DNA from: Rhodoferax sp.
GTDB taxonomy: Bacteria; Pseudomonadota; Gammaproteobacteria; Burkholderiales; Burkholderiaceae_C
DNA length: 64,000 nt
NCBI GenBank assembly: GCA_046348185.1
Contig: JAXMER010000015.1
Coordinates: 13,834-77,833 of the forward strand
Reading direction: 5' to 3'
Within the stretch, counting starts at the first letter, position 1; every line of letters starts with the position of its first letter. Below are positions 1,915 through 51,135 of this stretch, in pieces. A program made the position numbers and the translations under genes. Below the pieces are notes generated by a model. It ran no database searches, was not told where the DNA came from, and was given only the letters and a program-made list of their open reading frames with translations.

Positions 1915-2856
1915 TCAGCGCAGGCGCTTGATCAGGCTGCTGGTATCCCAGCGGTTGCCGCCCATGCGCTGCACATCGGCGTAGAACTGGTCGACCAAGG
2001 CTGTCACCGGCAGGCGTGCGCCGTTGCGCTTGGCTTCCTCCAGCACCAGGCCCAAGTCCTTGCGCATCCAGTCCACGGCAAAGCCGAAGTTGAACTGGTC
2101 GGCCACCATGGTCTTGCCGCGGTTGTCCATTTGCCAGCTTTGTGCGGCACCCTTGCCAATCACGTCCAGCACTTGCAGCATGTCCAGGTTGGCGGCCTGG
2201 CCAAAAGCAATCGCTTCCGACAAGCCCTGCACCAGGCCGGCGATGCAGATCTGGTTGACCATTTTGGCCAACTGGCCCGAACCACTTTCGCCCAGCAGGG
2301 TGAATGCGCGTGAAAACGCCATGGCCACCGGCTTGACTGCATCAAATGCTGGCGCATCGCCGCCGCACATCACCGTGAGTTGCCCGTTTTGCGCCCCCGC
2401 TTGCCCACCCGACACCGGGGCATCAATGAAGTGAAGTCCTTCCTGGCGTGCCAGGTCGCTCAATTCGCGCGCCACATGGGCTGAGGCGGTAGTGTGGTCC
2501 ACGAAGATGGCACCGGGCTTCATGCCAGCATAGGCTCCGTCAGGGCCAATGGTGACCGCGCGCAGGTCGTCGTCATTGCCCACGCAGCAAAACACTATGT
2601 CTGCGCCCAGCGCTGCTTGTCGCGGTGTGGGTGCATGTGAGACATTCGTGGTGTTAGCCCCCGAAAACTCTGTACACCATGCTATTGATTTGGTAGCGGT
2701 GCGGTTGTAGACGGTGACGGCATGGCCCGCCTGCGCCAGATGGCCGGCCATGGGGTAGCCCATGACGCCCAGGCCCAGGAAGGCGACGGTGGCAACGGGA
2801 CAGGGCGTGTAGTCCTTGGGGTTGATCGAGGCAGTGGTCATGCGGGAGGGATGCAT
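1915..2856 (-). CDS. NAD(P)-dependent beta-hydroxyacid dehydrogenase (3-hydroxyisobutyrate dehydrogenase family)
   Basis: Rossmann N-terminus VAFLGLGVMGYPMAGHLAQAGHAVTVYNRT and family-typical GSGQLAKMVNQ. Its ATG overlaps the pilU stop (TGATG on the minus strand). Hosts type-1 repeat copy A. Confidence 0.9.
   Translation of the reverse strand: MHPSRMTTASINPKDYTPCPVATVAFLGLGVMGYPMAGHLAQAGHAVTVYNRTATKSIAWCTEFSGANTTNVSHAPTPRQAALGADIVFCCVGNDDDLRAVTIGPDGAYAGMKPGAIFVDHTTASAHVARELSDLARQEGLHFIDAPVSGGQAGAQNGQLTVMCGGDAPAFDAVKPVAMAFSRAFTLLGESGSGQLAKMVNQICIAGLVQGLSEAIAFGQAANLDMLQVLDVIGKGAAQSWQMDNRGKTMVADQFNFGFAVDWMRKDLGLVLEEAKRNGARLPVTALVDQFYADVQRMGGNRWDTSSLIKRLR
2655..2697 (+). repeat. Type-1 43-nt repeat, copy A (inside the dehydrogenase CDS)
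   Basis: TAGCCCCCG AAAACTCTGTACACCAT GCTATTGATTTGGTAGC. Read on the gene strand as ATKSIAWCTEFSGA. Confidence 0.85.
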
Positions 2857-4004
2857 CAGTTCACAGGTGCCAGGCCAGCGCTGGCCAGGCCGCCGGTGTC
2901 GGAAATGTCAGCCTTGCTGCGCTGGCTGTTGAGCTTGATCTGCAGGCGCAGGTCGTTCATGGAATCGGCATTGCGCAGCGCGTCTTCGTAGGTGATGGCG
3001 TTCTTTTCGTAAAGGTCGAACAAGGCTTGATCGAAGGTCTGCATGCCGCCTTGGCGGCTCTTCTTCATGATTTCCTTGATGCCTGCCACCTCTCCCTTGA
3101 AGATCAGATCGGAAATGAGCGGTGAATTGAGCATCACCTCCACCGCCGCTACACGGCCCTTGCCGTCCTGCTTGGGGATTAGACGTTGCGAAATCATGGC
3201 GCGCAGGTTCAGCGACAGGTCCATCAGCAACTGGGCACGGCGCTCCTCGGGGAAGAAGTTGATGATGCGGTCCAGCGCCTGGTTGGCACTGTTGGCGTGC
3301 AACGTGGCCAGGCACAGGTGGCCAGTTTCTGCAAAGGCTACGGCGTGTTCCATGGTCTCGCGGTCGCGGATTTCGCCCATCAGGATCACATCGGGCGCCT
3401 GGCGCAAGGTGTTCTTCAGGGCTGCTTCCCAGCTGTCGGTATCCAGTCCCACTTCGCGCTGGGTGACCACGCAGTTCTTGTGCGCATGCACGAACTCCAC
3501 CGGGTCTTCCACGGTGATGATGTGGCCGTACGAGTTGTCGTTGCGCCAGTCCACCATGGCCGCCAACGTGGTGGACTTGCCCGAACCCGTAGCACCCACC
3601 AGGATGCACAGGCCGCGCTTGGTCATGGATACTTCCTTCAGGATCTGGGGCACGCCCAAACCGTCAATCGTCGGCAAGGTAGTGGGAATCACCCGTGCCA
3701 CCATGCCGACCTTGCCCTGCTGGATGAAGGCGTTGACCCGGAACCGCCCGATGCCCGGCGGCGAGATGGCGAAGTTGCATTCCTTGGTGCGTTCGAACTC
3801 GGCCACCTGTTTGTCGCTCATGACCGAGCGTGCCAGCGACAGGGTGTGCGTGGCGTTCAGGGGTTGGGGAGAAACCTTGGTAACCTTGCCATCGACCTTG
3901 ATCGCTGGCGGAAAGTCGGCTGTGATGAAGAGGTCGCTGCCATTGCGCCCGACCATCAGCTTGAGTAGGTCGTTGATGAATTTGGTGGCTTGATCGCGCT
4001 CCAT
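2856..4004 (-). CDS. pilU: Type IVa pilus retraction ATPase PilU
   Basis: PilT/PilU family with Walker A GATGSGKST. N-terminus MERDQATKFINDLLKLMVGRNGSDLFIT. ATG at 4004 chosen inside ORF 2856..4091. Lies downstream of pilT. Confidence 0.9.
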   Translation of the reverse strand: MERDQATKFINDLLKLMVGRNGSDLFITADFPPAIKVDGKVTKVSPQPLNATHTLSLARSVMSDKQVAEFERTKECNFAISPPGIGRFRVNAFIQQGKVGMVARVIPTTLPTIDGLGVPQILKEVSMTKRGLCILVGATGSGKSTTLAAMVDWRNDNSYGHIITVEDPVEFVHAHKNCVVTQREVGLDTDSWEAALKNTLRQAPDVILMGEIRDRETMEHAVAFAETGHLCLATLHANSANQALDRIINFFPEERRAQLLMDLSLNLRAMISQRLIPKQDGKGRVAAVEVMLNSPLISDLIFKGEVAGIKEIMKKSRQGGMQTFDQALFDLYEKNAITYEDALRNADSMNDLRLQIKLNSQRSKADISDTGGLASAGLAPVN

Positions 4005-4041
4005 GAGAGCACCTACCTTTCTTTGAAAGCAATTTTCCGCA

Positions 4042-4100
4042 GGGCCGCCCCAAGGAAAATTAGCCCCCTTGGGGGGCAGCGACCCGTGCAACGGTGGAGC
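4042..4100 (+). repeat. Type-2 GC-rich hairpin repeat, copy T2a (pilT-pilU intercistronic)
   Basis: GGGCCGCCCCAAGGAAAATTAGCCCCCTTGGGGGGCAGCGACCCGTGCAACGGTGGAGC. Contains the CCCCC-TT-GGGGG and CCCCAAGG/CCTTGGGG inverted repeats. Confidence 0.8.
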
Positions 4101-4112
4101 TTGGGGGTCATA

Positions 4113-5156
4113 TTACCCGGGGAAATTCTCGGGAATCTTCGCCTTGCCGCGCGCCTCGGCGGCGCTGATGACGTTGCGCCGCACCAGGTCGGTCAGGTTC
4201 TGGTCCAATGTTTGCATGCCCATGCTGTTGCCGGTCTGGATGGCCGAGTACATCTGGGCCACCTTGGCCTCGCGGATCAGGTTACGGATGGCGCTGGTGC
4301 CCAGCATGATCTCGTGCGCCGCCACGCGGCCCTGACCGTCCTTGGTCTTGCACAGGGTTTGCGAAATCACGGCCTGCAGCGACTCGGACAGCATGGCGCG
4401 CACCATTTCCTTTTCTTCGGCGGGGAACACGTCGATGATCCGGTCGATGGTCTTGGCGGCGCTGCTGGTGTGCAGGGTGCCGAACACGAGGTGGCCGGTT
4501 TCGGCCGCTGTCATGGCCAGACGGATGGTTTCCAGGTCGCGCATTTCGCCCACCAGAATGGCGTCGGGGTCTTCCCGCAGGGCGGACTTCAGGGCGGCAG
4601 CAAAGCTCAGGGTGTGTGGACCAACTTCGCGCTGGTTGATCAGGCACTTCTTGGACTCATGCACGAATTCGATGGGGTCTTCCACCGTGAGGATGTGGCC
4701 GAACTCGGTTTCGTTGAGGTAGTTGACCATGGCCGCTAGCGTGGTGGACTTGCCCGAACCTGTGGGCCCGGTCACCAGCACCAGACCACGGGGTTTCAAG
4801 GCGAGGTCGCCAAAGATCTTGGGTGCGTTGAGTTGCTCTAGCGTGAGGATCTTGCTCGGAATGGTCCGGAACACGGCCCCGGCGCCGCGGTTGTGGTTGA
4901 AGGCATTGACGCGAAAACGCGCCAAGCCATCGATCTCGAACGAAAAGTCGATTTCCAGAAACTCTTCGTAGTGCTTGCGCTGGGTGTCGTTCATGATGTC
5001 ATACACCATGGCATGCACCTGCTTGTGGTCCAGGGCCTCGACGTTGATGCGGCGCACGTCGCCGTGCACGCGAATCATGGGCGGCAGTCCTGCGGAAAGG
5101 TGGAGATCGGAAGCCTTGTTCTTGACGCTGAACGCCAGCAATTGGGTAATGTCCAC
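4113..5156 (-). CDS. pilT: Type IVa pilus twitching motility ATPase PilT
   Basis: (V)DITQLLAFSVKNKASDLHLSAGLPPMIRVHGDVRRI and Walker A GPTGSGKST. GTG at 5156 gives the canonical 347-aa PilT. The ORF-track start at 5228 adds a non-homologous extension. Confidence 0.93.
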   Translation of the reverse strand: MDITQLLAFSVKNKASDLHLSAGLPPMIRVHGDVRRINVEALDHKQVHAMVYDIMNDTQRKHYEEFLEIDFSFEIDGLARFRVNAFNHNRGAGAVFRTIPSKILTLEQLNAPKIFGDLALKPRGLVLVTGPTGSGKSTTLAAMVNYLNETEFGHILTVEDPIEFVHESKKCLINQREVGPHTLSFAAALKSALREDPDAILVGEMRDLETIRLAMTAAETGHLVFGTLHTSSAAKTIDRIIDVFPAEEKEMVRAMLSESLQAVISQTLCKTKDGQGRVAAHEIMLGTSAIRNLIREAKVAQMYSAIQTGNSMGMQTLDQNLTDLVRRNVISAAEARGKAKIPENFPG

Positions 5157-5201
5157 GAAAGTCCCTTTGCAATGGTGCGGGTTTGGTACGCTTGGAACAT
5201 T

Positions 5202-5912
5202 ATGACCACGATTGCCGAGAATCTCCACTGCGTCCGTCAGCGGATCGCATCAGCCTGTGCCCAGGCACAACGTGCACCGTCGGCGGTGGCCTTGCTGGCG
5301 GTGTCCAAGACCTTTGATGCCGATGCCGTTTTGCAGGCCTATCAGGCCGGGCAGACGGCATTTGGGGAAAACTACATCCAGGAAGCGGTCGACAAGATCG
5401 CCCAGCTGCGCCAGCTGCCGCTGCAATGGCATTGCATCGGCCCGATCCAGAGCAACAAGACACGTTTGGTGGCGCAGCATTTCGACTGGGTGCATACCGT
5501 GGACCGCCTCAAGATCGCGCAGCGCCTGAGCGAGCAGCGCCCCACCGAGTTGCCTGCGCTGCAAGTTTGCATTCAGGTCAACATCGATGGCGGCCCCACC
5601 AAGTCCGGTGTGGCACCTGCACAGGCGCTGGAGTTGGCCCGGGCCGTCGCATCACTGCCGCGGTTGCGGTTGCGCGGGCTAATGTGCATCCCGGAGCCTG
5701 CTCCTGATTTCGTAGCGGCTTGTGCAGTATTTGCAGGGGCTAAAGCCCTATTTGATCAATGCAATCAGGCTGGACTGGAGCTGGATACCCTGTCCATGGG
5801 CATGAGCGACGACCTGGAGGCGGCCATCGCATCGGGCTCCACCCTGGTGCGGGTGGGTAGCGCCATCTTTGGCAAGCGCAGCTACGCGCCGACCTTGGCT
5901 GTCGACGCGTAG
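5202..5912 (+). CDS. yggS: YggS family pyridoxal-phosphate homeostasis protein
   Basis: MTTIAENLHCVRQRI...LLAVSKTF...LSMGMSDDLEAAIASGSTLVRVGSAIFG. Divergent from pilT, as is usual. Hosts type-1 copy I. Confidence 0.92.
   Translation: MTTIAENLHCVRQRIASACAQAQRAPSAVALLAVSKTFDADAVLQAYQAGQTAFGENYIQEAVDKIAQLRQLPLQWHCIGPIQSNKTRLVAQHFDWVHTVDRLKIAQRLSEQRPTELPALQVCIQVNIDGGPTKSGVAPAQALELARAVASLPRLRLRGLMCIPEPAPDFVAACAVFAGAKALFDQCNQAGLELDTLSMGMSDDLEAAIASGSTLVRVGSAIFGKRSYAPTLAVDA
5700..5742 (-). repeat. Type-1 43-nt repeat, copy I (inside yggS), diverged
   Basis: Reverse complement: TAGCCCCTG CAAATACTGCACAAGCC GCTACGAAATCAGGAGC. Read as APDFVAACAVFAGA. Confidence 0.7.
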
Positions 5913-5918
5913 GCCCGG

Positions 5919-6479: not shown

Positions 6480-6576
6480 GGAAGTCCCCCGAAAAAAGGC
6501 GATTGTGGCATCCCCGAAACAGGGGCGCTACCCGTGTTGGCGCTTTGCAACGCTGTCTATAGAATGGTCGATCGCT

Positions 6577-7509: not shown

Positions 7510-7533
7510 GGCGCCCCACACCGCGGACCGGTT

Positions 7534-9954: not shown

Positions 9955-9980
9955 AGCTTGAGCGCCGACAGATCGTCGAA

Positions 9981-10787: not shown

Positions 10788-10842
10788 CGTCTTGCTCCCA
10801 AAAAGATGGTTATTGGATGGATGAAAACAAAATACCTGAAAC

Positions 10843-11490: not shown

Positions 11491-11592
11491 GAATGGGTTC
11501 CCGTAGGGATGGACGCGCGATTATAGGAAGCGGGTTTTGCGTCGCCTATGCGGGTTCCCACGGGGTTGTAAGCACTTGTATCGGGTCCGGAT

Positions 11593-12190: not shown

Positions 12191-15100
12191 ATGACCGTCG
12201 CGCAACGCCTGCCCTTTCCTTATCGACCCGAATCCGAAGTCGTAGCCCAGCGTCTGCAGAGCCTGCACCACAGCCTGGACTGGGCCGCCGCAGCCCGCGT
12301 GGCCGCACCCTGGGTGCAGGCCGTGCGGGACAACCCGCCGCCTTTCTGGGCCATGGAAAGTCTGCTCAAGGAATACCCCATCTCCAGTGCAGAAGGCCTT
12401 GCCCTGATGCGCCTGGCCGAGGCCCTCTTGCGTGTGCCCGATGCCGAAACCGCCATTGCCCTCACCGCCGACCAGCTGGGCCGGGCCGACTTTGACGGCG
12501 CGGGCGACAAGGTGCTGGCGCGCCTTTCCAGCACGGCCATTGCCATGAGCAAGCACTTCTTGCCGCACCCGCAGACTGGCGCGGGCGCACCCGAAGAGCC
12601 CGGGCTGATGGCCAAGCTCGGCGCGCGCACCGTGGTGGCCGCCACCCTGCGCGCGGTGCAGTTGCTGGGGCGCCAGTTCGTGCTGGGCCAAACCATGAAG
12701 GAAGCGCAGCACGAGGCTGCCAGCGCCCGCAAACATGCATCCGTGCGGTTCTCGTACGACATGCTGGGCGAAGGCGCGCGCACCGATGAAGATGCCTTGC
12801 GCTACCTGAAGGCCTATGCCGATGCTATTGAATCCATAGCTGAAAAAGCAGATTTCACGGGGGCTACCGAACAAAATGATGGTATCTCCATCAAACTCAG
12901 CGCTCTGCACTCGCGCTACGAGGACGCGCAAAGCCAGCGCGTCATGGACGAGCTGGTGCCCCGTGTCTGGGGCCTGTGCCAGCAAGCGGCCAAGGCCAAC
13001 ATCAACCTCACCATCGACGCCGAGGAGGTGGACCGCCTGGAACTGTCGCTGGAGGTGTTCGAGGCCCTGCTGGCGCGTGTGGCCGAGCACTGCCCGCAGT
13101 GGCGGGGCTTTGGCCTGGCCATGCAGGCCTACCAGACCCGTGCGCTGGAACTGATCGAGCACCTCACCGCCCTGGCGCGGCGCTACCGCGTGCGCCTGAT
13201 GTGCCGCCTGGTCAAAGGCGCATATTGGGACGCCGAGGTCAAGCGCGCGCAAGAGCTGGGCCTGCCCGGCTACCCAGTGTTCACCCACAAGCACCATACC
13301 GATATCTCCTACCTGGCCTGTGCACGCGCACTGCTGGACGCGCCCGACGCCATCTACCCCCAATTTGCCACGCACAACGCGGGCACCATTGCCGCCATCC
13401 TGCAAATGGGCGCCAAGACGGGGGCCGCATTTGAATTGCAGCGCCTGCACGGCATGGGCGAAGGCGTGTACCGCGAGGTGCTGAAGAACCCCCTGGTGTC
13501 CTGTCGCGTCTACGCGCCGGTGGGCGCCCACCGCGACCTGCTGGCCTACCTGGTGCGTCGCTTGCTGGAGAACGGCGCCAACTCGTCCTTTGTGCACCAA
13601 CTGGCCGACGAAAGCGTGGGCATGGAAGAGCTGCTGATTTCGCCGTTGCGCCTGGAGCACCACGCCAGCCTGCCGCTACCCGCGCACCTGTTCGGCGAGC
13701 ATGCCGGTGCGCGCAAGAACAGCGTGGGCGTGGACCTGACCGTGCCCTCCATGCGCGAGCCGCTCATGGCGGCCCTGGCCAGCGTCGAGGTACCCGTGGT
13801 GCCCGAGGCCGATCTGGCCACCATTGCGCCAGCCTTTGCCCGCGCCGAGGCGGCGGGTTGGGGCTGGCGCAACACCGACGTGGCCCAGCGCAGCGCCATG
13901 CTGCGCGCGGCGGCCGACGCTTTGAGCGAGCGCACCCCGCAGTTCTGCGCCTTGCTGGTGAAAGAGGCGCACAAGACCTGGGGCGACGCCGTTTCTGAGG
14001 TGCGCGAGGCGGTGGACTTCCTGCGCTACTACGCCGATGAGGCCCAGCGCATCATGCAGCCGCTGGCGCAGCCGCAGGTGCATGGCGTGCCCGCTGGTGC
14101 GCAGCCCTGGGGCGTGACGGGTGAGACCAACACGCTCACCCTGACGGCGCGCGGTGTGTGGGTATGCATCAGCCCCTGGAACTTTCCGCTGGCCATCTTC
14201 ATGGGCCAGGTTGCCGCAGCGCTGGCCACCGGCAATACCGTGTTGGCCAAGCCTGCCGAGCAGACGCCGGGCGTGGCACTGGAAGCCGTGAAGCTGATGC
14301 ACGCCGCAGGTATCCCGGTGGATGCGTTGCAACTGCTGCATGGCGCGGGCGAAACCGTGGGTGCCGCCCTGGTGGCGCAGCCGCGTGTGGCCGGTGTGGT
14401 GTTTACCGGCTCCACCCAGGTGGCCAAGATCATCCAGCGCGCCCTGGCCGCCAAGGATGGCCCCATCGTGCCGCTGATCGCCGAAACCGGTGGTATCAAC
14501 GCCATGCTGGTCGACAGCAGCGCGCTGCCCGAGCAGGTGGTCGATGCCGTGGTGCAAAGTGCGTTCCGCTCCGCCGGCCAGCGCTGCTCGGCCCTGCGTC
14601 TTCTGTGTGTGCATGAGAGCATTGCCGACGGCGTCATCGCCATGCTGCAAGGGGCTGCGCAAGAACTGGCGGTGGGCGATACCGCCGACCTGGCCACCGA
14701 CGTGGGGCCGGTCATCGACCGCGAGGCCTACGACAACATCCAGCGCCACCTGCAGCGCCTGCATGCACAGGCAAAAGTACTAGTAGCCCCCGGCAATACT
14801 GGTTACAAAGCTACCAAAACCATAGCAAATCTGGTGCCGCCCCACGCCTTCGAGGTCAGCGGCATTGCCGACGTCAGCGCAGAAATCTTCGGCCCGGTGC
14901 TGCAAGTGGTGCGCTGGGGGGGCGACCCGGCCGATGTGATCGCCCAGGTCAACGCATTGGGCTACGGCCTGACGCTGGGCATTCAGACCCGCATCGACTC
15001 CCGCGCCCAGGCGCTGGCGCGGGCCGCCCATGTGGGTAACGTGTACATCAACCGCAACATGATCGGGGCCGTGGTGGGCGTGCAGCCCTTTGGTGGCGAG

Positions 15101-17676: not shown

Positions 17677-18531
17677 TTACATCAGGGAAAAATCGCGCTC
17701 AAAGCGCATCAGGTGCTGGCCGCCGTCGACCAGTAGGGTGGTGCCGGTCAGCGACTGGTTGGTCAGCGCGAACAGCACGGCGCTGGCCACATCCTGCGCG
17801 GTGCTGGAGCGCCCCAGAGGCGAGAGCCGGTGCAGCGCTTCGAACTTGTCTTGCGAGAGCAGGTGGCTGGTGAGCGTGAGGCCCGGCGCCACACCCACCA
17901 CGCGCATGCGCGGAGCCAGCGCCAGCGCCAGCATGGTGGTGGCGGCTTCCAGCGCCGCCTTGGACAGGGTGTAGCTGAAAAAGTCAGGATTCTGGTTCCA
18001 CAGCTTCTGGTCCAGCAGGTTCACGACGACACCGGGTCCTCGCGCTCCACCGTTGCACGGATCGCTGCCCTCCGAGGGGGCGGACTCTCCTTGGGTCGGC
18101 CCGGCGGGGAGTTGCTCGCGTCCAGCGAGATGGTTGTGCAGGGCCTGCGCCAGCAGGATGGGTGCGGCCGTGTTGGTATGCAGGTGCTGGTTCAGCGTGG
18201 CAAAGCTAAAGCCATCCACCGTGTCATGCTCAAAAACCGAGGCGCTGTTGACCACGGCGTCCAGATGCCCGAACTGTTGTACCACCTGCGGCACCAGGGC
18301 GCGTACCGCCGCCTCGTCGGCCAGGTTGGCACAAAATGCGGCGCTAGCCCCCGATAAAGCTGAACATGCTGCTACGGTATCCATAGCATCAACTTCGGAA
18401 TGGCGGTAGTGCACGGCCACGCGCCAGCCGGCGCGCGCCAGCGTGAGCGCGATCTCGCGGCCCAGGCGCTTGGCCGCGCCGGTGACCAGCACGGTGGGGG
18501 GCGTTGAGACAGACGGTTGTGGGGTTGGCAT
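17677..18531 (-). CDS. SDR family oxidoreductase, pteridine/dihydromonapterin reductase-like
   Basis: VLVTGAAKRLGREIALTLARAGWRVAVHYRHS. Adjacent to folB. ATG 18531 preferred over the TTG at 18540. Hosts type-1 copy D and type-2 copy T2b. Confidence 0.85.
   Translation of the reverse strand: MPTPQPSVSTPPTVLVTGAAKRLGREIALTLARAGWRVAVHYRHSEVDAMDTVAACSALSGASAAFCANLADEAAVRALVPQVVQQFGHLDAVVNSASVFEHDTVDGFSFATLNQHLHTNTAAPILLAQALHNHLAGREQLPAGPTQGESAPSEGSDPCNGGARGPGVVVNLLDQKLWNQNPDFFSYTLSKAALEAATTMLALALAPRMRVVGVAPGLTLTSHLLSQDKFEALHRLSPLGRSSTAQDVASAVLFALTNQSLTGTTLLVDGGQHLMRFERDFSLM
18044..18102 (-). repeat. Type-2 GC-rich hairpin repeat, copy T2b (in frame inside the SDR CDS)
   Basis: The reverse complement matches T2a at 51 of 59 positions in an ungapped alignment (hand count). 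Translated within the gene as AGPTQGESAPSEGSDPCNGGA. Confidence 0.85.
18345..18387 (+). repeat. Type-1 43-nt repeat, copy D (inside the SDR CDS)
   Basis: TAGCCCCCG ATAAAGCTGAACATGCT GCTACGGTATCCATAGC. Read on the gene strand as AMDTVAACSALSGA. Confidence 0.85.
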
Positions 18532-18539
18532 GGGAGACA

Positions 18540-20288: not shown

Positions 20289-20292
20289 CGCC

Positions 20293-21275: not shown

Positions 21276-22043
21276 CTACCAGTACGGGGCAAAGAACGGC
21301 TCCAGCTCCACCAGGGCGTCGTCGATCATCTCGGGCAGGGCCTGGGCAAAGCAGTCCAGCAGCACCACGGCATTGGGGCTGGAGTCGCTGGCGGCGGCTT
21401 CGCGCAGGCGTTTGCTCAGTCCCAGGTTGACCTGGTGCAGGCCGCGGTAGCGCTGGCGCAGGCCGTCCAGGTCGTAATCGGCAACCCCGCCCTTGCGTTC
21501 TACGAAAAACTGTGCCAGCAAGTACATGGAGGCGGCGCGGTAGGCGGTTTCGGTCTCGTTGGCCAGCGGCAGGTGAAAGCGTGCCATGGGGCGCAAGAAC
21601 GCGGTCTGCGGGCAGCCCGAGGTGGCGATGAGCAGGCCCATCAGGCTGCTGATGGCGCGCTGCGCGCTGGTGCGGGCGGTGGTGGTGCGCTCGCCGGTGA
21701 TAACGGTCAGCTCCACCTGCTCAAAGGAGCTCAGGCTGGCGCTCCAGTCCAGCAAGTCGGCCATGCGCAGGGCGGCCGGGCACTGCGCGGTTTGCGCAGC
21801 CTGCAGCGGACAGTGCGTGCATTGGTGGCGGCCCAGCGCAGCCCAAGCGGGCGTGTCGGTGCGCTGCGTATCCAGCGGTTGCAGGGTCTGCGCGTCGAAT
21901 GCAAGCGCAAACGCCGTCGTGGTGCCGTCGCCGGCGGTAAAGCGGTATTCGATATGCCAGGTGTTCATGCCCGCCAGATGCGCTGCTTGCTGTGGTGGGT
22001 GGTGCGCCAGTATGGCACGCCAGCGACTGTAGTCCATGCGCAA
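21276..22043 (-). CDS. Conserved hypothetical protein (Cys motif CTHCPL...QCP)
   Basis: Long ORF downstream of, and co-oriented with, the LysR gene. No family recognised. Alternative start at 21968 (MNTWHIEYRF). Confidence 0.55.
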   Translation of the reverse strand: MRMDYSRWRAILAHHPPQQAAHLAGMNTWHIEYRFTAGDGTTTAFALAFDAQTLQPLDTQRTDTPAWAALGRHQCTHCPLQAAQTAQCPAALRMADLLDWSASLSSFEQVELTVITGERTTTARTSAQRAISSLMGLLIATSGCPQTAFLRPMARFHLPLANETETAYRAASMYLLAQFFVERKGGVADYDLDGLRQRYRGLHQVNLGLSKRLREAAASDSSPNAVVLLDCFAQALPEMIDDALVELEPFFAPYW

Positions 22044-22057
22044 GGAAAATCAGCCAG

Positions 22058-22100
22058 TAGCCCCCGTAAATACGCATGATGTTGCTACAGAAATTGTAGC
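22058..22100 (+). repeat. Type-1 43-nt repeat, copy E (intercistronic)
   Basis: TAGCCCCCG TAAATACGCATGATGTT GCTACAGAAATTGTAGC. The palindrome is perfect. Lies between the LysR stop and the next gene's start. Confidence 0.9.
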
Positions 22101-22108
22101 TATGGCAT

Positions 22109-29971: not shown

Positions 29972-31206
29972 TCAGCCATCGCGGCAAGCCGCGCCGCGCG
30001 GATTCGCTTGCCAATGTCTGGGCCACTAGCCCCCGTGGATTGGGCTAGTGCAGCTATCGAATCAGTAGCAACCCGTAGCGTGGTGTGCAAGGCTTGCAGT
30101 AGCCGCGGGCGTTGCGGGTACGGTGCGTCTTGCTGGCCCAGGCGGCCGCGCGCATCGCACTCGCAAGCCAGCAACACCTCGGCAAAGCGATCCGGCTTGC
30201 GGATGGCGTCGCAGCGCTCCAGCAAACGCAGCACGGCATCCGCCCCAAATTCCAGGCTGCGGTGAATGTTGCCGTGTTCGCGTGCCACCACCTCGGCTAG
30301 CTCACGGCAGTCGTTAGGGATGCGCAGGGGAATCTTTTTCAGCGAGCGCACGCTGCGTTCCTCGTGTCCGATATGGCGTGGCAGCACATCAACGGGGGTC
30401 GTGCCCTTGCCCAGGTCGTGGGTCAGGCAGGCAAACCGTACCGGCAGGCTGGCTCCCAGCCGTGCGGCCATGTCCAGCACCAGCATCACATGCACGCCGG
30501 TGTCAATCTCGGGGTGGTAGTCCGGGCGCTGGGGTACGCCCCACAGGCGGTCCAGGTCGGGCAACAGATGCGCCAGAGCGCCGCAGTCGCGCAGGACGGC
30601 GAACATGCGCGATGGTTGCTTCTCCATCAGGCCGCGCGCGAGTTCCTGCCAGACGCGCTCGGGCACCAGGTGGTCGGTCTCGCCAGCGTCCACCATGGCG
30701 CGCATCAAGGCCAGGGTTTCGGGGGCCACGGTAAAGTCGGCAAAGCGCGCAGCAAAACGGGCCAGGCGCAGGATGCGCACCGGGTCTTCCCGAAAGGCGG
30801 GGGTGACGTGGCGTAGCACTTTGGCCGCGATGTCGCGCTGTCCTCCATAGGGGTCTACCACGTCTTTTTGGGAAAACTGCCCGGTAGCCCCCGTTAAGTC
30901 TGCATGTATTGCTATTGAATTGATAGTAAGATCGCGTCGGGCCAGATCCGCTTCCAGGGTAACGTCGGGTGCGGCGTGCACGGCAAAACCGCGGTAGCCA
31001 CCCGCTGTGTTGCGCTCGGTGCGTGCCAGAGCGTATTCCTCGTGCGTTTGTGGGTGCAGGAAGACGGGAAAGTCGCGCCCCACCGGGGTGAAACCCTGCG
31101 CCAGCAGTTGCGCGGGCGTGGCCCCCACGACCACCCAGTCGCGGTCTTGCATGGGCAAGCCCATCAGGGCGTCGCGCACCGCACCACCGACCAGGTACAC
31201 CTCCAT
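29896..31206 (-). CDS. cca: Multifunctional CCA-adding enzyme (tRNA nucleotidyltransferase with HD domain)
   Basis: MEVYLVGGAVRDALMGLPMQDRDWVVVG, RRDLTIN and HDLGK. Hosts type-1 copies F and G. Its 3' end overlaps the convergent TPR gene by 76 nt. Confidence 0.93.
   Translation of the reverse strand: MEVYLVGGAVRDALMGLPMQDRDWVVVGATPAQLLAQGFTPVGRDFPVFLHPQTHEEYALARTERNTAGGYRGFAVHAAPDVTLEADLARRDLTINSIAIHADLTGATGQFSQKDVVDPYGGQRDIAAKVLRHVTPAFREDPVRILRLARFAARFADFTVAPETLALMRAMVDAGETDHLVPERVWQELARGLMEKQPSRMFAVLRDCGALAHLLPDLDRLWGVPQRPDYHPEIDTGVHVMLVLDMAARLGASLPVRFACLTHDLGKGTTPVDVLPRHIGHEERSVRSLKKIPLRIPNDCRELAEVVAREHGNIHRSLEFGADAVLRLLERCDAIRKPDRFAEVLLACECDARGRLGQQDAPYPQRPRLLQALHTTLRVATDSIAALAQSTGASGPDIGKRIRAARLAAMADQLSQSEPPPAEPPSSQDASAMPKF
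30027..30069 (+). repeat. Type-1 43-nt repeat, copy G (inside cca, 3' part)
   Basis: TAGCCCCCG TGGATTGGGCTAGTGCA GCTATCGAATCAGTAGC. Read as ATDSIAALAQSTGA. Confidence 0.85.
30885..30927 (+). repeat. Type-1 43-nt repeat, copy F (inside cca, at the RRDLTIN motif)
   Basis: TAGCCCCCG TTAAGTCTGCATGTATT GCTATTGAATTGATAGT. Read as TINSIAIHADLTGA. Confidence 0.85.
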
Positions 31207-40535: not shown

Positions 40536-40538
40536 GGC

Positions 40539-43344: not shown

Positions 43345-43354
43345 GAATGTAGCG

Positions 43355-43858: not shown

Positions 43859-43878
43859 TGCGATTCGTAACGCCGCCG

Positions 43879-44418
43879 TCAAGCCCAACAGCGTACGTCT
43901 GCCGCAGGCACCGCCACAGCACGCGGCCCAAAACTGGTGATGTTGGCTAGCGTCTCATTGTGGTGCGCGGAGATTTGCGCTGCCTTGAGCGTGTCGTTGT
44001 CCAGCGTGGTGTGACCGTCGGCCACCAGCGTAACGGGGTAACCGAGCGCCAGGGCACGTCGGGTGGTGGTGTCCACGCAGAATTCGCTCTGCAAACCACC
44101 GATGATCAGATGGTTCACGCCGTGCTCCTGCAGCAGGGCGTGCAGGGCTGTCTGGTGGAAGGAATCTGTGGCCCGCTTGCGAACGAACACGTCTTTTGAC
44201 TCGGTCAGAAGCCCACGCGCCAGGCGCCAGCCTTCAGAGTCGTACACCAGCGCGCCCGAGGCGGACTCGTGCTGGATGACGACAACCAGGCCGCCAGCCT
44301 CCCGAACGCGCTGCGAGACGAGGTTGATGCGGGCGATGACGCGGTCAGCCTCAAACCCTGCGTATTCGCCATGGCAAAGCGCATGCTGGACGTCGATGAT
44401 GAGAAGTGCAGTGGGCAT
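43879..44418 (-). CDS. Isochorismatase-family cysteine hydrolase
   Basis: MPTALLIIDVQHAL...LIIGGLQSEFCVDTT. ATG 44418 chosen inside ORF 43879..44502. Confidence 0.85.
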   Translation of the reverse strand: MPTALLIIDVQHALCHGEYAGFEADRVIARINLVSQRVREAGGLVVVIQHESASGALVYDSEGWRLARGLLTESKDVFVRKRATDSFHQTALHALLQEHGVNHLIIGGLQSEFCVDTTTRRALALGYPVTLVADGHTTLDNDTLKAAQISAHHNETLANITSFGPRAVAVPAADVRCWA

Positions 44419-44512
44419 GGAATGGTGACTGGGTTTGTTTCGTGGTAGTTGGAATGGCAAGGGGCTGGCTTCTCCATTTTCTGGAACAGCGGCTGTATGC
44501 AAAATGTGCCAG

Positions 44513-44555
44513 TAGCCCCCGTGGAATAATATTCTGTAGCTACGAAATCAGTAGC
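44513..44555 (+). repeat. Type-1 43-nt repeat, copy H (intercistronic)
   Basis: TAGCCCCCG TGGAATAATATTCTGTA GCTACGAAATCAGTAGC. Lies between the thioesterase stop and the isochorismatase-family gene start. Confidence 0.9.
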
Positions 44556-44557
44556 AA

Positions 44558-44968
44558 TCAGCGCTTGGGGATCTCCCGCGGCTGGCCGTTCTGGTCGATG
44601 GCGACATAGGTGAGCGTGGCTTCGGTCACTTTGACGTGGTTGCCCTGGGCGCTCATGCGCTCGGCGAACACCTCCACCTTCACGGTGATGGAGGTGCGCC
44701 CGATCCGGCTCACCTTGGAATAGAAGCTCAGGATGTCGCCCACGCGCACTGGCTGCTTGAAGACGAATTCGTTCACCGCCACGGTGGCAAAGCGCCCGTG
44801 CGTGTACCGCGCAGGCAGCACGGCGCCGGCCAAGTCCACCTGAGCCATGACCCAACCGCCAAAGATGTCGCCGTTGGCGTTGCAATCGGCGGGCATGGGA
44901 ATGACCTTCAGGACCAGTTCTTCATCGGATGGGGGGGTGGCGGTAGCGGGCGGTGTGTCGGGGTTCAT
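44558..44968 (-). CDS. Acyl-CoA thioesterase (YciA-like)
   Basis: DCNANGDIFGGWVMAQVDLAGAV...RIGRTSITVKVEV. ATG 44968 chosen. Confidence 0.88.
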   Translation of the reverse strand: MNPDTPPATATPPSDEELVLKVIPMPADCNANGDIFGGWVMAQVDLAGAVLPARYTHGRFATVAVNEFVFKQPVRVGDILSFYSKVSRIGRTSITVKVEVFAERMSAQGNHVKVTEATLTYVAIDQNGQPREIPKR

Positions 44969-44987
44969 GGGGTGCGGGTTGGGTTGA

Positions 44988-46256: not shown

Positions 46257-46274
46257 TCGGGCTATTTGGCCGCC

Positions 46275-48125
46275 ATGCGCAACCACGGACGTTTCGCTTC
46301 CGACGCTCCTGCGTCGCCCCTCCCTCACGCGCCCCGGTCGGACTGGCAGACGATCCGGCGCCTGTTTCCCTACCTGTGGACCTATAAATGGCGGGTGATG
46401 GGGGCCATCGCCCTTATGGTGGCGGCCAAGCTGGCCAACGTGGGCGTACCGCTGTTGCTCAAGCAGTTGGTGGATGCCATGACGCCAGCGCCCGTGGGCG
46501 TGGCCACTGCCGTGCTGGTCGTGCCAGCGACCCTGCTGCTAGCCTACGGGGCGCTGCGACTGTCGACCACACTCTTTACGGAGCTGCGCGAAGTGGTGTT
46601 TGCCAAGGCCACGCAAGGCGCGGCGCGGCGCATTGCGCTGGAAACCTTCAACCATTTGCACGCGCTGAGCCTGCGTTTTCATCTGGAGCGCCAAACCGGT
46701 GGCATGACGCGCGACATCGAGCGCGGTGTGCGTGGCATCGAATCGCTGCTATCGTTTTCCATGTTCAACGTGGTGGCCACGCTGATCGAAGTAGCCATGG
46801 TGCTGACTATTCTGGCCTTCAAGTTCGATGCGGGGTTTGCCTGGATCACAGTGGGGGCCTTGAGCATCTACATCGCGTTCACAGTGGGCATTACCGAGTG
46901 GCGCACCAAATTTCGCCGCGAGGCCAACGAGTTCGATTCGGCCGCGCATTCCAAGGCCATTGATTCGTTGTTGAACTACGAGACGGTCAAGTACTTCAAC
47001 AACGAAGCTTTCGAGGCCGAACGCTACGACACCAGCCTGGAGCGCCTGCGCCGCGCGCGCCTGAAGTCGCAAACCACGCTGTCGCTACTCAACACCGGCC
47101 AGCAGCTCATCATCGCCACGGGACTGGTGGCCATGCTCTGGCGCGCCACGCAGGGGGTGGTGGATGGGCGCCTGACATTGGGTGACCTGGTCATGGTCAA
47201 CGCCTTCATGATCCAGATCTATATTCCGCTGAACTTCCTGGGCGTGATCTACCGCGAGATCAAGCAAAGCCTGACCGACCTGGACAAGATGTTCACGCTG
47301 ATGGAGCGCGAGCGCGAAGTGGCCGATGCACCTGGTGCCCAGCCGCTGGCGCTACCCCAAGGGCAGGTCAGCGTGCGCTTTGAGAACGTGCGCTTTGCCT
47401 ACGACGCGCAAGGTCCATCGCAGCAAGGGCGCACCATCTTGCATGGCATCAGCTTCGACATTCCGGCGGGCAAGACGGTGGCCGTGGTGGGGCCATCGGG
47501 TGCGGGCAAGTCCACCCTGGCGCGCCTGCTCTACCGCTTCTACGATGTGAGCAACCCCGAAGAGGGCGGCTGCATCCGCATCGCCGGGCAGGACATTCGT
47601 GCGGTGACGCAAGACAGCGTGCGTCGCGCCATCGGTATCGTGCCGCAAGACACCGTGTTGTTCAACGACACGGTGGAATACAACATCGCCTATGGCCGCC
47701 CCGGCGCCAGCACGGAACAGGTGCAGGAGGCCGCGCGCGCCGCCCACATTCACGACTTCATCACCGCCACGCCCAAGGGCTACGCCACCATGGTCGGTGA
47801 ACGCGGCCTCAAGCTCTCCGGCGGCGAGAAGCAACGCGTGGCTATCGCCCGCACCCTGCTCAAGAACCCGCCCATCCTGATCTTCGACGAAGCCACTTCG
47901 GCTCTGGACAGCGCCAACGAGCGCGCCATCCAGGCCGAACTGCAATCCGCCGCGCGCGGCAAGACCACGCTGGTGATTGCGCACCGCCTCTCCACCGTGG
48001 TGGATGCACACGAAATTTTGGTGCTGGAGGGTGGCCACATTGTGGAGCGGGGCACGCACGCCGCGCTGTTGGCCGCTAACGGGCGTTATGCCCAGATGTG
48101 GGCGCTGCAGCAGTCGGGGGAGTAG
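46275..48125 (+). CDS. ABC transporter, fused permease/ATPase (ATM1/HMT1-type exporter)
   Basis: Six-TM domain, Walker [10 protein letters not shown], signature [13 protein letters not shown], Walker [16 protein letters not shown] 46275 preferred over the TTG at 46266. Confidence 0.92.
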
Positions 48126-48145
48126 TTTGCAGGGTTTTTGGCAGT

Positions 48146-48188
48146 TGGCCCGCGAATTGATTGGAAGTGCAGCTATTAGAACGATAGC
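48146..48188 (+). repeat. Type-1 43-nt repeat, copy K (intergenic), diverged head
   Basis: TGGCCCGCG AATTGATTGGAAGTGCA GCTATTAGAACGATAGC. Spacer and palindrome are close to copy G. Confidence 0.7.
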
Positions 48189-48225
48189 ATAGCGGATTCA
48201 TGCAAACGCCGCATAATCCGCTTCC

Positions 48226-49206
48226 ATGGAAACCAAATGGCTTGAGGATTTTGTTTCGTTGGCCGAGACGCGCAGTTTCAGCCGCTCGGCTCAGTTGCGC
48301 CACGTTACGCAACCGGCGTTTTCGCGGCGTATTCAGTCGCTGGAGGCCTGGGCGGGCACCGACCTGGTGGACCGCAGCAGCTATCCCACGCGTCTGACGC
48401 CGGCAGGCGAGACGTTATATGCCCAGTCGCTGGAGATGTTGCAATCGCTGCAGACCACGCGCGCCATGTTGCGCGGGCACACCTCTGCGGCGCAGGACGT
48501 GATCGAATTTGCCGTGCCGCATACCCTGGCCTTTACCTTTTTTCCTGCCTGGGTGTCGAGCTTGCGCGAGACCTTTGGCCCTATCAAAAGCCGCCTGATT
48601 GCACTCAACGTGCATGATGCCGTGATGCGCCTGGTGGAGGGCAGCTGCGACCTGCTCATTGCCTACCACCATCCCTCCCAGCCGTTTCAGCTTGACCCGG
48701 AGCGCTACGAGATGGTGAGCCTGGGCGAGGAGCTGGTGGCGCCGTATGTCAAACCCGACAGCAGCGGCGCACCGCTGTACCAGCTGCCAGGCCGCCCCGG
48801 CCAGCCACTGCCTTACCTGGGCTACGCGCCCGGTGCCTACCTGGGGCAGATGGTGGATCTCATTCTCAAGCAGTCGCAAACGGCCATTCATTTCGACCGT
48901 GTCTATGAAACCGACATGGCCGAGGGCCTGAAGGCCATGGCACTCGAAGGGCACGGCATTGCCTTTCTGCCTTCTAGCGCGGTCAAGAAAGAGCTGCGCG
49001 CCAAGCGCTTGGTGAGTGCGGTTCCATCCCATATCACCGGCTTGCAGATCACCATGGATGTGCGGGTGTACCGCGAAAAACCGGTGCAACGCGAAACCGG
49101 GCGCGCGGTGGCGGTGGTGCCGCGCGGCCACGCAGGGGCGGCCGCGCCCAAGCGCAGTGCGCAAGCCCTGTGGGATTACCTGCTGGCGCAGTCGCAAAAG
49201 GCCTGA
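48226..49206 (+). CDS. LysR family transcriptional regulator
   Basis: METKWLEDFVSLAETRSFSRSAQLRHVTQPAFSRRIQSLEAWAG. Confidence 0.92.
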   Translation: METKWLEDFVSLAETRSFSRSAQLRHVTQPAFSRRIQSLEAWAGTDLVDRSSYPTRLTPAGETLYAQSLEMLQSLQTTRAMLRGHTSAAQDVIEFAVPHTLAFTFFPAWVSSLRETFGPIKSRLIALNVHDAVMRLVEGSCDLLIAYHHPSQPFQLDPERYEMVSLGEELVAPYVKPDSSGAPLYQLPGRPGQPLPYLGYAPGAYLGQMVDLILKQSQTAIHFDRVYETDMAEGLKAMALEGHGIAFLPSSAVKKELRAKRLVSAVPSHITGLQITMDVRVYREKPVQRETGRAVAVVPRGHAGAAAPKRSAQALWDYLLAQSQKA

Positions 49207-49345
49207 TTCCAACTCCAAATCATCCGTGTCGTTGTTGCTTCGCCTTGCCGTACGTCTGTACTGTCTGCGGCCTCGTGCCTAGACACAAATTTGGAATGTC
49301 CGCCCAGAAGCCGGCACCAGACAAGGCATTTGGGACAATACGGGC

Positions 49346-50374
49346 ATGAACACCCTTACCATCACCCGCCCCGACGACTGGCATCTGCACGTACGCGACG
49401 GTGCAGCCCTCTGCACTGTGGTGCCGCACACGGCGGCGCAGTTTGCCCGCGCCATCATCATGCCCAACCTGAAGCCACCGGTCACCACGGCGCAGCAGGC
49501 ACTGGCCTACAAGCAGCGCATCCTGGCGGCGGTGCCTGCTGGAGTTTCGTTCGAACCGCTGATGACGCTGTACCTGACCGACAACCTGCCCCCCAGCGAA
49601 ATCGCTGCGGCCAAGGCCGCCGGTGTGGTGGCATGCAAGCTGTACCCGGCTGGCGCCACCACCAACAGCGATGCCGGCGTGACCGACTTGCGCAAGATCT
49701 ACCCCGTGCTCGAAGCCATGCAACGCGAAGGCCTGTTGCTGCTGGTGCATGGGGAAGTCACCTCGCCCGACATCGACCTGTTCGACCGCGAGGCCGTATT
49801 CATCGACCAACAATTGAAGCCCTTGCGCCGCGATTTCCCCGGCCTGAAGATTGTGATGGAGCACATCACCACCCGCGAAGCCGCCGACTACGTGGCCAGC
49901 GCCGACGCCAACCTGGGCGCCACCATCACCGCGCACCACCTGCTCTACAACCGCAATGCCATCTTCACTGGCGGCATCCGCCCGCACTACTACTGCTTGC
50001 CGGTCTTGAAGCGCGAGGTGCACCGCCAGGCCCTGGTACGTGCTGCCACCGGTGGCAATCCGAAGTTCTTTCTGGGCACGGACAGCGCACCGCATCCGGT
50101 GCATCTGAAGGAGCACGCCACCGGGTGCGCCGGTTGCTACACCGCCCATGCGGCCATGGAGCTGTACGCCCAGGCCTTTGATGCGGCTGGAGCGCTCGAC
50201 CGTCTGGAAGGCTTTGCTTCTCTTTTTGGCGCCGATTTCTACGGCCTGCCACGCAACACCGGCACGCTGACTCTGCGCCGCGAAAGCTGGACGCCGCCCG
50301 AACGCTTTGCCTTTGGCGACGCCGAACTCAAGCCCCTGGCGGCGGGCGAGGCACTGGCGTGGCGAGCCGCATAA
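49346..50374 (+). CDS. pyrC: Dihydroorotase (homodimeric type)
   Basis: [14 protein letters not shown]...AIIMPNL...[11 protein letters not shown]...FLGTDSAPH. Confidence 0.95.
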
Positions 50375-51135
50375 TCGTCCCCCTGCACCATATCAACTGG
50401 ACCGCACCCTGGCTGGCCTGCTGGCGCGATCTGGGCGAGCCCCTGGCGCAGCAGGTGTTGCAGGGCCAGGCGCAACCCGATGCACTCAATACCGCCGCGC
50501 TGGCCCCGGTGCGTTTTGTGCCGCAATTGGAGCTGCCTGAAGGCCGGGCCTACGAGCAGCATATCTTTGCGACCGGCTGTGTACCTACCCGCGAAGGGCT
50601 GCACGATTTCTTCAATGGCCTGGTGTGGATGCGTTTTCCCTTGGCCAAGCGCGCCTTAAACCGCTTGCAGGCCAGCCAAATCGCGCAAGATGGCGTAGGC
50701 GCCAGGCGCGGCGCTGTGCGCGACGCCATCACGGTGTTGGACGAGAACGGCGCTTTGCTGCAGGCGCCCGATGCGCTGTGGAAGGCGCTGGTGCGCAAGG
50801 ACTGGGCGGCCGTGTTTGGGGAACTGCGCCCGATGTGGCAGCAGACCCGTCTGGTCCTGTTTGGTCATGCGCTGATGGAGCAGCTGGTATTCCCCAGAAA
50901 ACCCATTACAGCCCACGTCGTTGCTGTACCTGAAGCTATCGAAACGATAGCGCATTGGGACCAGTGGCTGTCCGACCGGGTCAGTGCACCGTGGCTGGCG
51001 GCCAAGCCCTTTGCCCACCTGCCGGTGCTGGGTGTACCCGGATGGTGGCGCCCCAATGAAGATCCTGCCTTCTACGACGACGCACAGGTTTTCCGGCCCC
51101 TGCGCCCAATCCCCCAGCGGGCAAAGGCACATTGA
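50359..51135 (+). CDS. DUF3025 domain-containing protein
   Basis: [49 protein letters not shown]. Overlaps the pyrC end by 16 nt. Hosts type-1 copy L. Confidence 0.75.
50909..50951 (+). repeat. Type-1 43-nt repeat, copy L (inside the DUF3025 CDS), diverged head
   Basis: CAGCCCACG TCGTTGCTGTACCTGAA GCTATCGAAACGATAGC. Read as [15 protein letters not shown]. Confidence 0.7.

Follow-up and report, generated by a model that had tools for sequence, protein, structure and literature searches.

A stretch of 64,000 nt from Rhodoferax sp. (contig JAXMER010000015.1, positions 13,834-77,833, forward strand; the whole stretch is called the window below) carries a dispersed repeat that lies both between genes and inside the genes of conserved enzymes. 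The repeat is a DNA-level motif, neither a peptide motif nor a recently mobile insertion, and selection acts on the DNA, not on the peptide encoded by its intragenic copies. Recurring about once every 5 kb, and lying over codons without a change in gene length, it behaves as a genome-wide recognition signal and not as a jumping element. That a DNA-level motif has been overprinted in place is a view we hold with good confidence, and the best explanation as a whole is probably a recognition motif of about 67 bp that belongs to a group of Comamonadaceae.

The core pattern searched, TAGCCCCCG-N17-GCTA-N9-TAGC (43 nt, at most 3 mismatches), joins a head box through a 17-base spacer to a palindrome. 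It gave 13 matches in the window compared with 0.15 expected from dinucleotide shuffles, and the palindrome GCTA-N9-TAGC alone gave 10 compared with 0.24. A profile built from the copies then yielded 12 convincing copies in the window, eight intragenic and four intergenic; the 13th pattern match (34361-34403), which has 3 mismatches and is GC-rich, looks like a chance resemblance. From the window and loci of more than 60 genomes, 168 copies were collected, of which 110 were non-coding or unclear and 58 were called coding, based on whether an open reading frame (ORF) of 300 nt or more, with a third-position GC content (GC3) of at least 0.72, extends across the copy; these calls are crude, and some 'coding' copies near ORF starts may be non-coding. 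Nearly all coding copies use one of two frames, P0, which is read palindrome-first, or H2, which is read head-first. The position-by-position logo was the same for the 110 non-coding, 35 P0 and 22 H2 copies, with about 65 bits in each class, a figure partly fixed by the way in which the copies were found. Therefore, the conservation does not come from the encoded peptide.

Comparisons of the Cca, PutA, YggS, SDR and DUF3025 genes provide evidence that is independent of how the copies were ascertained. For Cca, 80 orthologous loci were retrieved by protein similarity alone. At the site of copy G, one of two copies in the cca gene of the window, the nearest lineages keep GCT..ATA GC...CG GGG GCT A, with 15-17 of the 17 core bases present in L120, L134, L123, L126 and L122. 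These box codons are rare in the genes sampled, GCT making up 7.6% of Ala, ATA 4.2% of Ile and GGG 13% of Gly codons. A PutA orthologue with about 75% DNA identity (L002) has 17/17 core bases at the site of copy C, where its spacer peptide reads PVQIAQEAMNS compared with PGNTGYKATKT in the window. Orthologues thus keep the rare-codon boxes, and the spacer peptides drift.

These results also bear on the simplest rival, namely that the repeat is ordinary conserved coding sequence or chance, with the shared peptide being a structural motif of helix, Gly and Ala. In its favour, the host segments consist of a helix and a turn, patterns resembling A..I[AG]...G are already present there in homologues without the motif, and copy L overlaps the strongly conserved DUF3025 peptide LVFPRKxITAHV. 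However, this explanation is refuted by the non-coding or unclear copies (4 of 12 in the window, 110 of 168 sampled), which share the same logo, and it accounts neither for the excess of matches over shuffles nor for boxes that persist between orthologues while the peptide between them drifts. We give it almost no chance of being correct.

Anatomy of the conserved unit

Across the 168 copies, the information content stands above background from about -20 to +47 relative to the head and is zero beyond. The conserved unit thus measures about 67 nt instead of 43, since conservation extends to the head-proximal flank (AAAT..GGCC.c) and to a short tail. The consensus reads tTTt..G..AAAT.GGCCTc TAGCCCCCG T..Aa..TGCGcAagcA GCTA T.aAAt..A TAGC Aa.t. 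Its parts follow in the order of a T-rich end, the AAAT tract, GGCC.c, the head box, the 17-bp spacer carrying T..A...TGC......A, the dyad box GCTA-N9-TAGC with its A/T-rich centre, and a short A-rich tail. The A/T-rich tracts are periodic at 10.5-11 bp (p about 0.01).

One half of the palindrome varies without regard to the other, the pair counts at positions 31/39 agreeing with independence, and no base-pair covariation was seen across it. The palindrome is therefore not maintained as a hairpin. The predicted stem has only 5 bp and is A/T-rich, and most copies fold much like shuffled controls (z of -0.75 to -1.5 for 4 of 6 strands, about -3 for one intergenic copy). With no covariation and such folding energies, a model of a hairpin or repetitive extragenic palindrome (REP) was ruled out. 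A structured RNA or tRNA-like origin was ruled out in the same way, because Rfam gave no match at the gathering threshold across the window and none at E <= 1 around one intergenic copy, and there are no tRNA genes in the window. Promoters were judged by eye and rejected: in CTGGCACATTTTGCA, the GG...GC interval falls two bases below that of the sigma-54 consensus, and no properly spaced -35/-10 pair was seen for sigma-70.

The spacing of the dyad box is also seen beyond the detected copies. Palindromes outside profile-detected elements are over-represented with a 9-base gap (36) compared with 8- or 10-base gaps (2 and 4). Several of these palindromes, missed by the profile, bear a variant head such as TAGCCCTTA. 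Variant heads, TAGCCCTTA/G, CAGCCCTTA and TAGTCCTTT, occur in L040, L045, L027, L048, L074, L075 and others, and the copies that carry them keep the same palindrome and spacing. The occurrence of these variants in other genomes suggests that the motif may have lineage-specific 'dialects' of the head.

Length and frame of the intragenic copies

The hosts of the eight intragenic copies were identified by Pfam and PDB matches as a HIBADH-like dehydrogenase, YggS, PutA (two copies), an SDR, Cca (two copies) and DUF3025. An earlier inspection of the letters, here called the sequence-only reading, had pointed out that 43 is not a multiple of three and had offered two ways out: either the mobile unit is longer, or the motif has overwritten existing codons at constant length. 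The length comparisons bear out the second: 5 of the 8 copies are collinear (0 or +1 codon) with motif-free homologues, and the other three add 3-10 codons. An insertion-sized gap of 14 or 22 codons (43 or 67 nt) was found at none of the eight sites. The unit did turn out to be longer than 43 nt, but 67 is not divisible by three either, and a longer unit thus does not rescue simple insertion.

Among the collinear cases, copy I (5696..5762, core 5700-5742, - strand) lies within yggS on the + strand, in ORF 4893-5912, where the YggS homology begins at residue 104. It has the head TAGCCCCTG and the right box GGAGC, encodes APDFVAACAVFAGA in frame P0, and occupies a segment that aligns without gaps with E. 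coli YggS (1w8g), a net length difference of 0. Copy D (18325..18391, core 18345-18387, + strand) lies within the FolM/pteridine-reductase-like SDR gene 17677-18540(-) and encodes AMDTVAACSALSGA in P0. Here HYRHSEVDAMDTVAACSALSGASAAFC aligns with HYRHSEGAAQRLVAELNAARAGSAVLC of T. cruzi PTR2 (1mxf), again with a net length difference of 0, and the two are collinear except for one residue just past the copy. Copy G (30007..30073, core 30027-30069, + strand; P0, ATDSIAALAQSTGA) lies within cca 29896-31206(-) and has the same length (net 0) in about 60 motif-free orthologues, for example SVDTAAIAAQAQAAGLKGPAIGE, which use ordinary GC-rich codons at this site. Copy L (50889..50955, core 50909-50951, + strand), within the DUF3025 gene 50359-51135(+), has a degenerate head, CAGCCCACG, and a perfect palindrome, and encodes a 15-residue peptide in H2; 118 of 120 homologues have the same length there (net 0), some of them without the SIA signature. 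Copy B (12820..12886, core 12824-12866, - strand), within putA 12191-15229(+), encodes AIESIAEKADFTGA in P0 and has one codon more than Bradyrhizobium PutA (3haz), while its region of 34 residues compares with a family mode of 33-34 among 150 diverse PutAs.

The other three copies carry extra codons. Copy C (14764..14830, core 14784-14826, + strand), in the same putA gene, is read head-first in H2 as VAPGNTGYKATKTIA and adds 3 codons relative to the family mode and 4 relative to the relative P0121. Copy A (2635..2701, core 2655-2697, + strand), within the HIBADH-like dehydrogenase gene 1915-2856(-), encodes ATKSIAWCTEFSGA palindrome-first in P0 and adds 7 codons relative to the PDB homologue 3w6u. 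Copy F (30865..30931, core 30885-30927, + strand), the second copy in cca, has the right box TAGT, encodes (L)TINSIAIHADLTGA in P0, and is 10 codons longer than short-loop orthologues but equal in length to long-loop orthologues without the motif (LPAQALRADGSFD).

In comparisons with distant homologues, an insertion plus a compensating deletion is formally possible, but five independent collinear cases make it unlikely. At the DNA level, an empty site is provided by L105, where an ordinary GC-rich stretch aligns with the element of L013 and L031; the L013 copy exceeds this stretch in length by 3 nt and the L031 copy by 15 nt. Alignment with orthologues had been proposed as a check in the sequence-only reading, and distant motif-free homologues proved to be without the nucleotide motif. 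Its remark that conserved host residues sit at several copies is likewise upheld. The palindrome of copy B encodes AIESIA at the AIxxIG helix of the PutA family, just upstream of GISIKLSAL, and that of copy F encodes, in rare codons, TINSIA of the conserved RRDLTINxxA motif. Mapping onto predicted structure, also proposed there, succeeded in part. The AlphaFold2 model of Cca is of mixed quality and our structural statement is limited to copy G, whose palindrome falls on helix 381-390 and whose head falls on the turn 391-394 (S-T-G-A), followed by helix 395-416. The block-mean predicted local distance difference test (pLDDT) score at this site is mostly 94-96 over residues 371-410, compared with a low-confidence value of about 50-60 at copy F.

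A classical non-autonomous mobile element would have to explain these lengths by in-frame insertion, the two frames being those of the survivors. Such an element could be a transposable element of the miniature inverted-repeat kind (MITE), a REP, or a relative of the Rickettsia palindromic elements (RPEs). RPEs add or encode a recurring peptide on the protein surface; each is a genuine insertion, through which the host protein grows by the element's full length, and in this sense in-frame palindromic elements are already known. Like them, the present repeat is short, dispersed, palindrome-containing and found inside functional genes with a recurring peptide. It is also family-specific and enriched between genes and at gene 3' ends, it includes a consensus-like subpopulation of copies, and its three extended copies add 3-10 residues relative to homologues. 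In contrast to RPEs, it changes the length by 0 or 1 codon in 5 of the 8 copies and never by its own length. Where a fixed-length block against empty sites would be expected, the differences are 0, 0, 0, 0, +1, +3/4, +7 and +10 codons, and 3 nt against L105. No terminal inverted repeat is present in the consensus (-20 to +47), and no duplicated flank or target-site duplication is apparent with it; TAGC stands at positions 1-4 and 40-43, yet conservation continues on both sides of each. Furthermore, neither 43 nor 67 is divisible by three, the conservation follows boxes and spacers instead of a uniform decay, and the palindromes of copies F and B encode residues that are shared family-wide. We disfavour a mobile element of this kind and consider it improbable.

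Six-frame translation reproduced every peptide quoted in the sequence-only reading, with copies A, I, B, D, F and G read palindrome-first in one frame and copies C and L head-first in another. In the window alone, the restriction of all eight copies to two frames is modestly significant (about 0.63^8 = 0.025, from the measured openness of the frames). The comparison of frames over genomic copies, which had been suggested as a further check, gave the same picture more clearly: the 58 coding copies comprise 35 P0, 22 H2, 1 H1 and none elsewhere, so that two frames hold 57 of 58, and copies in all frames were not observed.

A survival filter through TAG stops, as had been supposed, explains this distribution in part. 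Two of the six phases always contain TAG and are thereby closed. However, of the two further unused phases, one is free of stops in 31% and the other in 15% of the non-coding copies, and they account for 1 and 0 of the 58 coding copies. The stop filter alone predicts 22, 14.8, 14.4 and 6.8 copies in P0, H2, H1 and P2, respectively (chi-square p about 1e-6). These two remaining open phases encode segments of the Ser-Pro-Arg or Gly-Gly-Tyr type, which are almost never tolerated. Selection on the acceptability of the peptide acts on top of the stop filter. P0 and H2 are one phase viewed from both strands, mirror images about the dyad, and both read the palindrome GCT-Axx-xxx-xxx-xTA-GCx as Ala-[Ile/Thr/Met]-x-x-[Ile/Val/Leu]-Ala. 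Exactly two frames are used because the palindrome (17 nt) is symmetric and P0 and H2 have the same phase relative to its dyad. Codon tables give the head as [Thr/Ala/Ser]-Gly-Ala when read in P0 and as [Leu/Ile/Val]-Ala-Pro when read in H2.

Distribution among genes and genomes

The four intergenic copies of the window, all on the + strand, lie close to coding sequence. The copy at 22038..22104 (core 22058-22100) fills the space that separates the DUF6901 gene 21276-22043(-) from the LysR-type gene 22109-23038(-). The copy at 44493..44559 (core 44513-44555) is flanked by two genes whose ends it overlaps, the isochorismatase-family gene 43879-44502(-) and the thioesterase gene 44558-45052(-). 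The copy at 48126..48192 (core 48146-48188) has a degenerate head, TGGCCCGCG, with the ABC transporter gene 46266-48125(+) on one side and the LysR-type gene 48226-49206(+) on the other. The fourth, at 55953..56019 (core 55973-56015; head TAGCCACCG), begins at the stop codon of the thiolase gene 54775-55956(+) and falls outside the range 2655-50951 covered by the sequence-only reading. A related Rhodoferax contig (L010, 4682-4893) is syntenic with the window on both sides of 50359-51135 and has about 210 nt in place of the 777-nt DUF3025 gene that hosts copy L; this gene appears to be absent or replaced there. Orthology between the intergenic copy at 48146 and a copy in an intergenic region of L010 was considered and set aside, the alignment being too shifted to call.

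Other genomes were covered by an exact-pattern scan with the 17-base core, using one genome per species. At least 119 loci were found among the matches listed, in which the named hits are mainly Rhodoferax, Polaromonas and Ramlibacter, and all matches listed are Burkholderiales-type bacteria except for one Chloroflexi metagenome-assembled genome. Because these loci were found by the exact core, its conservation in them is partly circular, and both the taxonomic range and the core conservation are lower-bound, biased estimates. The closest Cca proteins to that of the window (about 78% identity) also come from Rhodoferax and Polaromonas. Different species retain copies at orthologous positions even where the flanks share no more than about 70% identity. 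Many of these orthologous pairs have perfect cores, although the pairs are partly biased by ascertainment.

About two thirds of the copies fall in non-coding DNA, itself a small fraction, frequently right beside gene 3' ends and often overlapping stop or start codons, and convergent gene pairs outnumber divergent ones around them (24 vs 11). In the window, the + strand is the G-rich one, and it carries the head in 10 of the 12 copies. Among 156 copies beyond the window, the head is on the G-rich strand in 85 and on the C-rich strand in 71 (p = 0.3). With no orientation bias in the wider sample, the 10/12 of the window is probably chance, and a replication-oriented motif (Chi or KOPS-like), which it had suggested, was rejected. 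A transcription-oriented element was ruled out as well, since copies between co-directional genes show no link to the direction of transcription (orientations 21 vs 19).

The element is essentially chromosomal. Queries with the consensus gave four plasmid matches, all from Comamonadaceae, and no phage match. One of the plasmid copies (L200; Diaphorobacter sp. HDW4A plasmid NZ_CP049911.1, 107812-107878) is near-consensus and bridges cobN and a TonB-dependent receptor gene. It supplies the final 30 nt of cobN plus the stop codon and extends to the start of the next gene, and the plasmid record has no repeat annotation at this copy. In the literature on Comamonadaceae repeats and Burkholderiales uptake sequences, no description of the 67-nt element was found.

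Comparison with known systems and origin of the copies

The copies are orientation-free, biased towards gene 3' ends, chromosomal, frame-biased and in place, and these traits match those of DNA uptake signals, the known system closest to the element in behaviour. The uptake signal sequences (USS) of Pasteurellaceae and the DNA uptake sequences (DUS) of Neisseriaceae also occur in hundreds of copies per genome in both orientations, are enriched outside genes and common inside, show preferred frames with recurring peptides within genes, and have lineage 'dialects', to which the variant heads may correspond. The Haemophilus USS consists of a GC-rich 9-bp core plus helically phased A/T tracts, a further likeness to the present element. 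Over-representation in both orientations was found here too, and the intragenic copies stand in place in preferred frames, with three copies adding 3-10 codons. The proportion called coding (35%) may be set beside the 34.5% to 65% of uptake sequences that lie in ORFs in three species; that account also describes intragenic uptake sequences as lying in preferred frames, in place without a change in length, at poorly constrained residues (PMC2817400). In contrast to USS and DUS, the element is tripartite, about 67 bp long and of about 65 bits compared with 10-30 bp, occurs at about 1 per 5 kb compared with about 1 per kb, and is not arranged as inverted terminator pairs. Instead of a short motif with a continuum of partial matches, its boxes are nearly all-or-none, 135 of 151 exact heads lying inside detected elements. 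The element thus appears to work like an uptake or recognition signal, and we do not file it as a member of that family.

In the window, yggS adjoins a neighbouring pair of paralogues from the T2SSE family (type II/IV secretion ATPases), 2856-4091(-) and 4113-5228(-). We read them as PilT/PilU-like, which is widespread machinery and not evidence of competence. The pair accounts for a direct repeat (D1; 3352-3590 and 4525-4763, 76% identical).

Other repeat families share individual traits with the element. HIP1, the highly iterated palindrome GCGATCGC of cyanobacteria, is an 8-bp word that spreads in place through substitutions and is conserved at orthologous sites. The present motif resembles it as an over-represented palindromic word in both coding and non-coding DNA and differs in its greater length (about 67 bp) and in having three boxes set a fixed distance apart. 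REPs form GC-rich hairpins and are confined to extragenic DNA. With REPs and bacterial interspersed mosaic elements (BIMEs), the element shares family specificity, a location mostly just past gene 3' ends, a preference for convergent pairs and occurrence in either orientation; in contrast to them, it is A/T-rich relative to the genome, folds weakly without covariation and is intragenic in about a third of its copies (58 of 168). The beta-proteobacterial repeat element (BRE) is about 90 bp long with 69% GC, often occurs in tandem arrays, and has been reported in Bordetella, Polaromonas, Rhodoferax, Delftia and Acidovorax, with some copies entirely within coding sequences (PMC3110155). Identity with BRE was rejected, because the present element is A/T-rich, single-copy and box-built and is set apart by the description of BRE.

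A second repeat of the window, GC-rich and unrelated to the 67-nt element, occurs at 4028-4100(+), 18044-18116(-) and 43061-43099(-) with the sequence CCGCnGGGCCGnCCCAAGGA...CCCCCTyGGrGGGCAGCGAyCCGTGCAACGGTGGAGC. It resembles BRE in size and composition and is the better candidate for it. Its copy at 18044-18116 lies within the SDR gene and matches about 30 residues (~138-168) that are absent from the PDB homologues 5tgd and 5bt9, and thus looks like a true in-frame insertion. Separately, a 12-nt periodic, CAC/CAT-rich repeat at 20739-20823 lies within the cation-efflux family gene 20212-21267(+) and, judged by its codons, should encode a His-rich stretch.

With respect to the origin of the copies, we propose that intragenic copies would be overprinted on existing codons of a helix followed by a Gly-containing turn, a general rule extrapolated from the five of eight copies in which this is seen. 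Each copy would then be kept by selection or molecular drive on the DNA, and a lineage-specific protein would most likely bind and bend the motif. In an uptake model, biased uptake together with homologous replacement would spread motif-bearing alleles while leaving the gene length unchanged. This specific uptake-signal mechanism is put forward only tentatively, and a nucleoid-architectural binding site may be regarded as an equally open alternative within the class of recognition signals. The conservation of boxes against spacers, the pre-adapted host peptides, the long persistence at orthologous sites and the intermediate states seen in some orthologues (12-13 of 17 core bases) fit selection or drive on point changes. 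Cca site F in L026, evidently an old copy, is still 81% identical to the consensus, which favours continuing pressure towards the consensus over an age-dependent decay.

Several points weigh against a recognition motif built up in this way. A recognition or uptake function is inferred from the behaviour of the motif only. With about 65 bits over 67 bp, the motif is two to three times as large and as rich in information as known uptake signals and is hard to build by point mutation. In addition, the boxes are nearly all-or-none, the element patch of L013 differs from L105 at far more positions than the flanks do, near-identical non-orthologous pairs (over the variable positions) number 37 compared with 0.8 expected while their flanks are unrelated, and copies C, A and F carry their extra codons. 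These last four features fit creation of the copy as a unit better.

Creation as a unit is the essence of templated patch replacement, in which the whole element would be copied over a resident stretch of similar length and would thus be 'mobile by overwriting'. This could happen when dispersed copies undergo short-tract gene conversion with one another or when single strands anneal at the replication fork; microhomology would determine the end-points, and only events that keep the frame and give a tolerable peptide would survive. Besides the all-or-none boxes and the excess of near-consensus non-orthologous pairs, such a route accords with net length changes that are small and variable (0, +1, +3/4, +7 and +10 codons) and never the whole element. 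It also accords with the comparison of L013 and L031 with L105, in which a patch of about 67 nt is much more diverged than its flanks and nearly equal in length. At Cca site G, L136 has an 8-residue addition, GTFSIKNA, which would not readily arise from point mutation. These residues resemble the head-proximal flank of the element in frame P0 (G-x-F-x-x-K-N), a likeness that hints that element-derived sequence may be added as a block. However, the spacers beside the invariant boxes are near random in non-coding copies (mean pairwise identity about 0.45), no near-identical copies occur within one genome, the 12 copies of the window are all strongly different, and no enzyme or template source was seen. 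To our knowledge, none is known for such replacement, nor is propagation by overwriting resident DNA known for any described repeat family. The 81% identity of L026 site F to the consensus fits continuing selection equally well. Taken together, we consider templated patch replacement rather unlikely as the source of the copies. Selection or drive on point changes and templated replacement are both in-place routes, and the present data cannot separate them cleanly.

In place of a simple insertion, the preferred reading remains a recognition motif overprinted on existing sequence. If this is true, a signal of about 65 bits can be superimposed on the working codons of conserved enzymes and held there over genus-level time spans, overlapping even the RRDLTIN catalytic motif of Cca and the AIxxIG helix of PutA. 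This would extend overprinting from words of 8-12 bp, such as uptake sequences and HIP1, to a much larger composite site. Two novel readings are conceivable, an overwriting cassette of about 67 bp that would be copied even over essential genes, or the first uptake or recognition signal of Comamonadaceae with an unprecedented tripartite DNA-bending architecture, and we regard either as rather unlikely. Under either of them, a long DNA signal would shape the proteins' coding sequences throughout a bacterial family and would force rare codons and an Ala-Ile...Ile-Ala...Gly-Ala peptide onto enzymes.

In practical terms, the element accounts for local patches rich in A/T and in rare codons, which could wrongly be taken for foreign DNA or, in alignments, for insertions. 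The 67-bp consensus offers a bait for a reader protein, for which an uptake receptor, a nucleoid-organising protein or a recombination factor are candidates. The element also marks a lineage comprising Rhodoferax, Polaromonas, Ramlibacter and their relatives, and may aid in the binning or classification of metagenomic contigs.

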